Shown here: one piece after another, positions 50,099 through 55,889 of the stretch
Position numbering within the stretch: position 1 is the first letter of the stretch
Layout: each line of letters opens with the position of its first letter
NCBI RefSeq assembly: GCF_018350175.1
Contig: NC_058381.1
Coordinates: forward strand, 2,170,001 to 2,234,000
DNA from: Felis catus
Taxonomy: Eukaryota
Direction: 5' to 3'
Length of the DNA stretch: 64,000 nt
Translations under genes and position numbers: made by a program
Notes under the pieces: model-generated
The model's database searches: none
The model's input: only the letters and a program-made list of their open reading frames with translations
What the model was told of the DNA's origin: nothing

Positions 50099-50410
50099 GC
50101 TGTCCCTCAGGCCGCCTCCAGGAGCCAGTGTGCGGGACGGGTGTAGGGGGAGGGCCAGATAGGTGCAGGGGTGCACGGAAGGAGGACCTCCAGGCCCACA
50201 CACGCCACCCTCTAGGAGCGGAATTTCCTGTCCCCCTCCTCCCACCCGGGCCGTCCCCGCGTGGGAAGCGCGCCTCGGAGCCTTTAAGGCTCCATCTCCC
50301 TGCCCTCCCCCGCCCGGGACAGGCCGGGACACCCGGGACCTGACATTTGGCATCTCCCAACGTGGGAGCTAAAAATAGCCGCGGGGGGGGTTACTCCAGG
50401 CCATTGCTCC
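50099..50410 (+). promoter_or_regulatory. GLUT4 muscle/adipose enhancer: Domain I-like element, E-box, MEF2 site and TRE-like element
   Basis: TGTCCCTCAGGCCGCCTCCAGGAGCCA at ~50101 (Domain I/GEF-like, as recalled), CATTTG 50344-50349, perfect MEF2 site CTAAAAATAG 50369-50378, followed by GGGTTACTCCAGGCCA. Confidence 0.8.
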
Positions 50411-51050: not shown

Positions 51051-54000
51051 ATGCCGTCGGGTTTCCAACAGATCGGCTCCGAAGTAGGGTTCAGCATGAG
51101 GGGGCGGGACGGGGGCACAGGGCCCTCTTTACTAGGGCTGGGGTCGCCTTTGGGGTCAGCTAGGGGGCGGTCCCTGCGCAGGCGCAGGGGGGAGGGGGGG
51201 TGGGGGTGGGGGCCTGGCTATTTATACCCTTGCGGGGCAACCCGTGACTGTCGGATTCCAGTCCTTCCAAGAGGCTGAGTGGGTCTCGGGGACAGTTCGG
51301 GGACACGGGCCACCACTGGATTTCCCGAGTCCAGGGTTCGCTCCTTTCTCCAGTACGAGGCGCGCTGCGCCGGGATCGGGGACACCCTGCCCTCGATCCA
51401 GCTTGAGAAAGCAGATCCAGGCGAGCCGTGCCCTCCTGGAGCTGTCCGTCTGTCCCGGCTCTCTCGGGAAGTTTTTCGAGGACCGGAGGCTCTCCGTGGG
51501 CCCCCACCCCCACCCCTGGCCGTCCTCCAGGACGCTGAACTTTCCCTCAGCCCCACGGTTGGTGGAGGGGCTGAGGGGAGTGTCAGCCCCCCCCCTCCCC
51601 CAGCTCAGGTTTCCGCTTAGAGACACTCCGTACCGCCAGCGAGCGGCCACCACCGCCACCGCCCCTCACACCACCTTCCCGCCCCCATCCCCTGGGCCTG
51701 GCTCCCCCAGGCAGAAGCCGGGCACGGCCCCCGCCCTTCGTCGGAGCCTGGAGGGGGAAGGGAGGCCGGGGCGGGGACAGAGAAGGCCACCCCAAGGGCC
51801 ATATGCGGGGAGGAATGACCGCGATGTCCTTTTTGGAATTGTCTTTTGTTGAGCCTGTTGGGCGCCTCTGGGAGCCCGCTGAGGGAGCCCCCAGAGGGGG
51901 AGAGGAAAGAGGGCAGAGGCAGGCAACATCACCCCTACCCGCCCCCCCCCCCCAACCCAGTGGAAACCTAGGCTCAGAGTGGGGAAGGGACTCACCCAAG
52001 GTCACCCAAATTCCAACTCAAGTCTTAAGGCCAAGCCTGTCCCAAGGTCACAGAGGAATGGTGAGGCCCGAGGTCCTCAAACATTTCTCAGCTTGCTGGA
52101 CCCAAAGACCCAGTTTTGGTTTGGTTTTTTTTTGTTGTTTTTTTTTTTTTTCTTTTTCATGGCTGATCACTGTTGGGTTCTTCCTACTACTGTTTACACT
52201 GAGATCTTTGCTCTATTCCTAATATGGCCCAGTTTCCCTCACCCAACATGTTGGATAGAACCCAGCATCTTAAAGCTCCGGCTGGGCCCGGGCCCCTGGA
52301 GGAAAGAAAGGAAGCATGATTCTGTGTGACATGCCTCGTCTCTTCTTCTGCCTACCCAGGACGGGGAGCCCCCACGGCAACGAGTAACTGGGACCCTGGT
52401 CCTCGCCGTGTTCTCTGCTGTGCTTGGCTCCCTCCAGTTTGGCTATAACATTGGGGTCATCAATGCCCCGCAGAAGGTGAGGGGTCTGTGGCTGGCAGGG
52501 TGTGGACTGTCTAAACAAGGAGGGCAGGGGACAGCAAGGGACAGCAGAGGGAGACGCCTCTGCAGGCAGTCACTCTTACGCTGTCCCCCCAGGTGATTGA
52601 ACAGAGCTACAATGAGACGTGGCTGGGGAGGCAGGGGCCGGAGGGACCCAGCTCCATCCCGCCAGGCACCCTCACCACCCTCTGGGCTCTGTCCGTGGCC
52701 ATCTTTTCTGTGGGCGGCATGATCTCCTCTTTCCTCATTGGTGTCGTCTCTCAGTGGCTGGGAAGGTATGGGCCCGGAGGGCAGGGGTGAGGGACAGGAC
52801 CAGGGGTCACAGCATGGCACCCTAACTTCCAGCCCCACTCTTTGCCCTTCAGGAAGAGGGCCATGCTGGTCAACAACATCCTGGCGGTGCTGGGGGGCAC
52901 CCTCATGGGCCTGGCCAATGCTGCTGCGTCCTACGAGATGCTCATTCTCGGACGGTTCCTCATTGGCGCCTACTCAGGTACCGACGGGCGCCATGGCCCT
53001 GCCCGGTGCCCTGCTATCTTGTCCGTTCACCATCACTGAACCTGCAGGGGGGAGTGGCCAGCTGCCCTCAGCCCTGTCTTCTTCCCTCTGCCCAGGGCTC
53101 ACGTCGGGGCTGGTGCCCATGTACGTGGGGGAGATCGCCCCCACTCACTTGCGGGGCGCCTTGGGGACGCTCAACCAACTGGCCATCGTCATTGGCATTC
53201 TGATCGCCCAGGTGACCGGGCCAGGCCTTATGAGTGGCTAGGCGGGGGGGCGGGGGGCTGGGTGGGGCTCCGGGCTGAATGGCCTGGCCCGTTTCCCACC
53301 CTCGTTCCTCAGGTGCTGGGCCTGGAGTCCATGCTGGGCACCGCCACCCTGTGGCCACTACTGCTGGGCATCACGGTGCTGCCTGCCCTCCTGCAGCTGG
53401 TCCTACTGCCCCTGTGCCCGGAAAGCCCCCGCTACCTCTACATCAGCCGGAACCTGGAGGGGCCGGCCAGAAAGAGTGAGCCTGGGCCCCACCTTGCTCG
53501 GCCGCCCTCCCAGGCCCCCCCCCCCCCCCCCCCCGCCGTCCCCCTCCCCGCCCTCCCCGCGCCCCTCCCCGCCCGCCCTCCCTCTCAGGCCCCGCCCTCC
53601 TCGCCCCCAGGCCTGAAGCGCCTCACGGGCTGGGCCGACGTGTCCGGAGCGCTGGCTGAGCTGAAGGAGGAGAAGCGGAAGCTGGAGCGTGAGCGGCCGC
53701 TGTCCCTGCTCCAGCTCCTGGGCAGCCGCACCCACCGGCAGCCCCTGGCCATCGCTGTGGTGCTGCAGCTGAGTCAGCAGCTCTCGGGCATCAACGCTGT
53801 ACGAGCCGCAGCCTCCGGGAAGGGCGGGGGGCGGGGCCCGGCCCAAGAGGAGGGGGAGAAGAAGGGCGCAGGCTCCCCGCGTTCAAACTCGGGTCGGTCG
53901 GGCTTGGTGTGGCCACCAGGGGGGAGAGGGTCACCCCTGCCATCCCCTTCTCTTCTCCCCCGCTCCTAGGTGTTCTACTATTCAACCAGCATCTTCGAGA

Positions 54001-54535
54001 CAGCAGGGGTAGGACGGCCAGCCTACGCCACCATAGGGGCCGGCGTGGTCAACACGGTCTTCACCTTGGTCTCGGTAACTGTGGGCGCCCACCATCGCCT
54101 TCGTGTCCCCCACTAGCCCCCGCCCGCCCGGTCCCTCCCACTCCTGTGCCCGGAGGCCCCCTGCCAAGCCGTGACTCTTCCTCGCAGGTGTTCTTGGTAG
54201 AGCGCGCGGGGCGTTGGACCCTCCACCTCCTGGGCCTGGCGGGGATGTGTGGCTGCGCCATCTTGATGACCATAGCTTTGCTGCTGCTGGTGAGGCCTGG
54301 GGAGGGGGAGGGAGCCAGCGGCCCAGCCCGAGGGCACCGCCCCGACCCCGAGGAGCTCTGGGGCCAGCCTCGGGCCAGGACCATGGTCCGCGTTCCCCTT
54401 TGTTCCTGCACCTCTTCCTGCTCTGGGAGGAAGCTCGGGCAGAACCCTGGCAGCCAGGGAGGAGAGCCACTGTCTAGTTTTAGGAACAACAATTCCTAAG
54501 GACCCAGTTTGAGAACCAAGAGAGAACCAACTAGC

Positions 54536-54566
<31 letters not shown>

Positions 54567-55889
54567 GAGAGAGAGAGGGAGAGAGAGCGCAAGCAGGGGA
54601 AGGGCAGAGCGAGAAGGAGAGAGAGAATCCCCAGCAGGTTCCACGCTGTCCGTGCAGAGCCCAGTGCGGGGCCCGAACCCACAGAACCATGAGATCACGA
54701 CCTGGGTCGAAATCAAGAGTCAGACGCTTAACGGACTGAACCACCCAGGCGCCCGGAGAAGCGACCACCTTGATAGCTGAGAACGTAGAACATTCTCTCT
54801 GCCCTGAATGGAGTAGCAGTTGGGCAGCCAGCTGGATGTCAGTGGTCAGAAATGCTCCAAGACCTGTTCTAACTTAGGGTGGCAGGCTCTTCCGTGAGCT
54901 GCCGGGAAGGGTAGATGTCAGTTCTCTGCACTGAGAGCAAAGGAAGATCCAGAAAGACGGAACCTGAATTCCTTCCTCTCCTTGCCCGTCCCCCAGGAGC
55001 GGGTTCCAGCCATGAGCTACGTCTCCATCGTGGCCATCTTTGGCTTTGTGGCATTCTTTGAGATTGGCCCCGGGCCCATCCCCTGGTTCATCGTGGCCGA
55101 GCTGTTCAGCCAGGGCCCCCGCCCGGCGGCCATGGCCGTGGCTGGTTTCTCCAACTGGACGTGCAACTTCATCATCGGCATGGGTTTCCAGTACATAGCG
55201 GTAGGTGCCCTGCCCCCGTCCCACCTCCTACCCGGTAGGCCAGGGTGGGGCAGGTCCCCGCCAGCCCCCTTGCTTCCTCCAGCCCCCCACCCCCATCCCC
55301 ATCCCCGACCCCAGGGTCGCTCTGGTGGACCACGTGGGCCCTGAAGACCACCTGCTCCACTAGAGTCGAAGGAGACAAGGGAGCTGAAGGGGTAACGACA
55401 GAAGGGCCTCCGAGCTGTGGTGTAACTGCAGAGTGACGCGCCCAGCTTCACGTCCACACTGCAGGTGGCTGGGGATCCAAGCCGAGCGGAAACGCTCTGG
55501 CCCTCACCATGGTAAAGGCGGCGAAGAATTCCGAGAGAGGCTGGGGAACGGAGAAGCCTTTCCTCCCTCCGCTCTCATTCCTGGTTGCTCCCCCTGCCCC
55601 ACGAAGGAACCACCTGCTGTGTGTGTAGCACCCCCCCCCCCCGCCCTCCCCTCCGTCAACACCTCTTCCTCCGCCTGTCCAGGAGGCGATGGGTCCGTAC
55701 GTCTTCCTTCTGTTCGCGGTCCTTCTGCTCTGCTTTTTCACCTTCACCTTCCTAAGAGTGCCTGAGACCCGAGGCCGGACGTTTGACCAGATCTCTGCCG
55801 ACTTCCGCCGGACGCCCTCTCTCTTAGAGCAGGAGGTGAAGCCCAGCACGGAACTGGAGTACTTGGGGCCGGACGATGAGAATGACTGA
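51051..55889 (+). CDS. SLC2A4: Insulin-responsive glucose transporter GLUT4, 11 exons, 510 aa
   Basis: Exons 51051-51083, 52360-52476, 52593-52765, 52853-52977, 53096-53211, 53313-53475, 53611-53798, 53970-54074, 54188-54289, 54997-55200, 55683-55889 (1533 nt). [29 protein letters not shown], dileucine and TELEY motifs. Confidence 0.98.
54536..54754 (-). mobile_element. Can-SINE in SLC2A4 intron 9
   Basis: Poly-T, (GA)n and reverse head CCACCCAGGCGCCC. Confidence 0.9.

Follow-up and report, generated by a model that had tools for sequence, protein, structure and literature searches.

A tryptophan codon in the C-domain A motif of a cat SLC2A4 (GLUT4) gene

GLUT4, the product of SLC2A4, is the transporter through which muscle and fat take up glucose in response to insulin. 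In the window analysed here (the whole stretch of 64,000 nucleotides), codon 350 of this gene is TGG (54215..54217, plus strand) and encodes tryptophan, and the orthologues have arginine there. The locus raised the questions of whether the codon was correctly placed, whether tryptophan was a real and shared allele, and what such a change would do to the transporter.

The SLC2A4 gene and the position of codon 350

SLC2A4 was located on the plus strand, with its ATG at 51051 and the end of its stop codon at 55889. The gene was intact, with 11 exons, AG/GT boundaries throughout, and a single open frame of 510 amino acids plus the terminal stop. Coding exon 1 (51051..51083) starts with the ATG and has an intact FQQI motif. 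It is followed on the same strand by exon 2 (52360..52476), exon 3 (52593..52765), exon 4 (52853..52977), exon 5 (53096..53211), exon 6 (53313..53475), exon 7 (53611..53798), and exon 8 (53970..54074). Exon 9 (54188..54289) has AG/GT boundaries and encodes residues 341-374, and exon 10 (54997..55200) carries E409, a modelled salt-bridge partner of residue 350. The last exon, exon 11 to the stop (55683..55889), carries E470 of the C-domain SP motif and the intact LL and TELEY motifs.

The identity of the gene was supported by several comparisons. Human GLUT4 was the best PDB match of exon 9, the predicted protein was about 97% identical to the GLUT4 of striped hyena and meerkat over 510 amino acids, and the PF00083 (Sugar_tr) domain was matched on exons 9 and 10. 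The GLUT4 trafficking motifs FQQI, LL, and TELEY and the N57 sequon were all found at the positions named in PMC9106701. Moreover, the SP motifs were present as PESPR at 224 (E225) and PETRG at 469 (E470). By every test of membership but the last residue of the A motif, the gene is an ordinary GLUT4. A pseudogene or a second copy was rejected, as the DNA had a single match in its own genome and the frame was intact.

The segment 54200-54220 translates as E345-R346-A347-G348-R349-W350-T351, in which tryptophan is the tenth residue of the exon 9 translation. The original prediction had read TGG at this place in exon 9 as codon 350, which was confirmed by the translation and by the 11-exon model; the number is correct because all 11 exons, each bounded by AG/GT, join into a single reading frame 510 amino acids long. 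The core of the C-domain RXGRR or A motif (residues 346-350, 54203..54217, plus strand) reads R-A-G-R-W. In the excerpt of PMC7898563 that describes this motif, the C-domain copy is printed as Gx3[D/E][R/K]xGx[R/K][K/R], and the GLUT1 copy ends at R334. At the last position, where the pattern has a basic residue, the window has Trp350, while E345, R346, G348, and R349 were kept. The alignment of exon 9 with its human orthologue (PDB 7WSM/7WSN) was gap-free. Furthermore, GLUT4 residue 341 aligned with GLUT1 residue 325, so that W350 corresponds to GLUT1 R334 and adjoins R333. The PDB alignment thereby bore out the earlier placing of the codon in the RXGRR motif and next to GLUT1 R333. As for the nucleotide change, we infer that TGG arose from CGG by a CpG transition; AGG to TGG would equally be one step.

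Conservation of arginine 350

Besides the query, protein searches and cluster look-ups yielded 297 distinct proteins, of which 55 did not cover the site and were dropped. Arginine was found at the site in 240 of the 242 distinct covering proteins, tryptophan in 2, and lysine in none; the set ranges from fish to mammals and includes isoforms and close relatives, so its rows are not independent. The rarity of tryptophan at the motif, which had also been claimed, was in agreement with these counts. When exon 9 was searched against the PDB, eight sequences of human GLUT4, GLUT1, and GLUT3 were matched, with arginine in all five alignments shown. Among the four paralogous exons found in the same genome by protein search, three had arginine and one had lysine. 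One GLUT3-like exon of this genome, L006 (G000:C47:63309389-63309487), has a diverged motif, with lysine at two positions and without the preceding glutamate, and is possibly a GLUT3 retrocopy or a GLUT14-like copy.

Every named feliform protein that covered the site had Arg350, namely those of tiger (P0003/P0049), striped hyena (P0060), and meerkat (P0038/P0197), unlike the cat. Compared with tiger, the window differed at S311T, R350W, and V369I, outside two apparently misannotated stretches of the tiger model and the ends of that model. No compensating change is evident relative to tiger, because these three are the only differences outside the misannotated stretches. The tiger model also contains intron-derived residues preceding exon 9, as does the window, in keeping with a genome of the cat family. 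The original prediction had suggested that the change may have produced a hypomorphic insulin-responsive transporter in a hypercarnivore, and the hypercarnivore framing was weakened by the arginine of tiger and striped hyena. A general felid or hypercarnivore adaptation was rejected, since both animals have arginine.

The coverage of small cats was narrower. An Iberian lynx fragment (P0231) was identical over residues 420-510, which also fits a cat-family genome, but this range lies outside site 350. Among the at most 15 listed members of the clusters of 402 and 99, and in a search with exon 11, no small-cat protein with a name was found to span residue 350. For this reason, tiger alone sets a limit on how old the change can be. 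In addition, JGI metagenome contigs, among which records near the cat's own genome may be left out, gave no matches in a pattern scan, and a search among proteins of 22-70 amino acids gave no candidate.

Reality and spread of the tryptophan allele

The two proteins with tryptophan were unnamed genomic open reading frames matching the SLC2A4 locus, and their cluster had two members, both with tryptophan. P0002, from a Logan contig of 1003 bases, was identical to the window frame 53909-54496 and may derive from the same animal as the assembly. P0048, from an ENA contig of 769 bases, differed from the window only at 54041-54043 and in its first four residues. In the GLUT4 frame, the difference at 54041 falls in Ala329 and is likely a synonymous C>T change within a CpG. 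By its sequence, P0048 is likely another haplotype with the same tryptophan, or possibly a contig with an error. These two records were not selected by allele, as the same search or cluster would have caught an arginine copy of the frame.

Sequencing runs were compared by 55 sampled 31-mers of 53900-54500. All 14 listed conspecific runs of genomic scale, from five studies (2015-2017), held 1.00 of these words; the list was ranked by word share, so that it favours carriers and is no measure of allele frequency, and heterozygotes would score 1.00 as well. One of the 14 runs may be the source animal. About three of the sampled words are expected to span the site, and the chance of none doing so is 0.04 if the sampling was random. 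Three metatranscriptomes had word shares of 1.00, 1.00, and 0.94. Three RNA-like conspecific runs (share 0.64-0.67) were excluded from the evidence. The number and variety of runs under this one species label suggest that the animal is a domestic cat.

The original prediction had left room for a private variant, a consensus error, or cytosine-deamination damage, and all three have become unlikely in view of the two other tryptophan records and the 14 runs from five studies. That tryptophan is a consensus error or a deamination artefact of one assembly would fit a C>T at a CpG within a GC-rich gene. However, the same tryptophan occurred in two records from other assemblies, and the 14 runs held every sampled word with the small chance given above that none spans the site, so we regard such an artefact as highly improbable. 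In our judgement, it is very likely that the Trp350 allele is real.

A segregating and mildly deleterious polymorphism, which this assembly happens to carry while many cats have arginine, deserves more weight and is still unlikely. Humans also have this change as a segregating variant (rs144431498), CpG sites mutate recurrently, and a run list that selects carriers is compatible with arginine alleles. On the other hand, tryptophan was present in both of the two genomic frames found without selection for the allele, one of them likely another haplotype, and carriers occurred in the five studies of 2015-2017 and in two metatranscriptome studies. An arginine-bearing small-cat record was not found either, in protein searches that were a weak means of finding one. 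As regards fixation, the outgroups had arginine and the conspecific-like evidence was all tryptophan, though selected or small. Our judgement is that Trp350 is probably the majority or fixed allele.

Predicted effect on transport and origin of the change

The residues of the surrounding network were compared with those described in PMC2997047, PMC7898563, and PMC9106701. Of the 21 residues checked, 20 were the same, and residue 350 was the sole difference. In a simulated GLUT4 homology model, R350 belongs to an E345-R350-E409 salt-bridge network and to a proposed ATP site (PMC2997047, excerpt), and both were repeated in PMC11374660. In the outward state, the SP-motif glutamate bonds the backbone amides of the last two residues of the A motif, as detailed for the N-domain, and weakening of the N-domain SP-A network lowered the apparent affinity about twofold in oocytes (PMC7898563, excerpt).

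The same residue change is a listed human variant, R350W (rs144431498), which is predicted to be deleterious: it was among 17 variants called harmful by at least six of seven predictors, whereas its predicted destabilisation was small, from -0.19 to -0.69 (PMC12275759, excerpt). The human variant is known from a list and from computational predictions, whereas in the cat it is the allele of an assembly and of other records. For GLUT1, the deficiency variants R333W, R93W, R92W, and R334Q lie in RXGRR motifs as W350 does, and R93W, which is the Arg-to-Trp change at the pseudo-symmetric position, was listed with GLUT1DS2 (PMC11780263, excerpt). The Arg-to-Trp variants among them share with W350 both the change and the motif, in GLUT1 and not in GLUT4, and R334 is the exact position. 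R333W affects the neighbouring residue, which is R349 in GLUT4 and intact in the cat, and the exact counterpart, R334, is represented in that paper by R334Q alone, with its clinical significance classed as unknown. In coarse simulations of GLUT1, the inside overlap was 47% for R334Q, 62% for R93W, and 24% for R333W, of which R333W was the most disturbing (PMC11780263, excerpt). The main text of the GLUT4 cryo-EM paper, PMC9106701, does not mention R350, and reports for another arginine of the C-domain, R416, an activity loss of only about 20%.

The most likely effect of W350 would be a partial loss or a kinetic shift that is tolerated on a low-sugar diet. Our best explanation, for which we consider the chances about even, is that W350 likely came about by a CpG change in the germline, later than the divergence from the tiger lineage, is likely common or fixed, and is predicted to give a working but partly impaired transporter. 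Under this explanation, the side-chain salt bridge of residue 350 to E345/E409 would be lost, together with part of the proposed ATP-sensing site. The balance between the inward and outward states would shift, the turnover or the apparent affinity would be lowered, and the inhibition by ATP would perhaps be less. R346 and R349 would keep the topology and the backbone contact would survive, so that the loss of the side-chain bridges would lead to a partial kinetic defect. A role of these arginines in keeping the topology was reportedly described by Sato and Mueckler in 1999. Schurmann et al. are said to have found in 1997 that GLUT4 lost activity when both arginines were mutated together, a double mutant that does not isolate R350.

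Trp350 might instead be real and widespread yet functionally near-neutral, the last position of the motif being the least critical. Tryptophan would sit at the membrane interface, and R346, R349, and the backbone contacts would suffice, or other felid residues would compensate. The reliance of the SP-A network on backbone amides at the final two positions of the motif is consistent with this (N-domain detail; PMC7898563, excerpt), as are the weaker simulated effects at this position than at R333 (PMC11780263, excerpt). In addition, the gene is otherwise intact, GLUT4 protein is made in cat muscle (PMC11642086, excerpt), and spread is less likely for a damaging allele. However, arginine was found in 240 of 242 proteins and lysine in none, despite the readily mutating CpG-bearing arginine codons, and GLUT1 R93W is listed with disease (PMC11780263, excerpt). 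Compensation would also require a change that is not evident relative to tiger, and for a compensated pathogenic deviation the human R350W is solely predicted to be deleterious. Near-neutrality appears to be a reading of some weight, though the less probable one.

Regarding the spread of a partly impaired GLUT4, a partial loss would cost little on a low-carbohydrate diet, and the allele may have drifted to high frequency under relaxed selection. Against this explanation, tiger and hyena eat as little sugar and keep arginine, so diet alone is no predictor; relaxed constraint with drift is simpler than adaptation. Conserved residues are known to be lost in single lineages. Among carnivores, losses in sugar handling include the sweet receptor and, in cats, hepatic glucokinase activity. 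W350 fits the same pattern of relaxed carbohydrate constraint. In those cases, however, a gene or its expression was lost, whereas W350 is a single missense substitution, absent in tiger, that leaves the gene intact.

Type-2-like diabetes arises spontaneously in cats, which serve as a model of it, and its molecular basis is called largely unknown (PMC11642086, excerpt). We regard it as rather doubtful that an entire lineage of small cats, with the domestic cat probably among them, has a naturally weakened GLUT4 without this otherwise invariant gating arginine, contributing to slow glucose clearance and a tendency to type-2-like diabetes. If the reading of a weakened GLUT4 is true, the species as a whole would offer a natural model for a human variant whose effect is predicted to be harmful. 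If W350 transports normally, a residue described as invariant and predicted deleterious when changed would prove dispensable, a more modest result but still of use. W350 offers a lead on feline glucose handling that can be tested, and a fixed change would escape within-species association studies.

No earlier report of W350 in cats was found in the literature searched, a search that reached few subscription journals and no bioRxiv supplements or feline variant tables. SLC2A4 or GLUT4 had no matches in the four leopard-genome supplements of PMC5090899. In the main text of the Burmese diabetes study, SLC2A4 was absent, and the five haplotype blocks list other genes (PMC7644637). PMC3320886 was without mention of cat, and PMC6290489 and PMC13700501 had no matches for R92, R93, R333, or R334. 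Probably, W350 is present but unremarked in public cat annotations.

Several minor features of the locus were observed as well. At the C-terminus (55869-55889), the protein has one extra aspartate just past the TELEY sorting motif, giving 510 amino acids versus 509 in most mammals. Tiger, striped hyena, and meerkat GLUT4 have the same aspartate as the cat, and with the lynx records also sharing it, it looks like a feliform trait. Residue 321 (54015-54017) is arginine, compared with glutamine in 60 of 66 near-full-length homologues and lysine in 5; the tiger records agree with the window, which suggests a likely felid change. Intron 6 is extremely rich in C (53500-53610) and includes a long stretch of poly-C. 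Upstream of SLC2A4, an intact MEF2-type site was found at 50369-50378, as in the known GLUT4 enhancer. Downstream, the segment 57600-57960 contains exon-like sequence that probably belongs to a neighbouring gene on the minus strand, which we take to be YBX2 from synteny.
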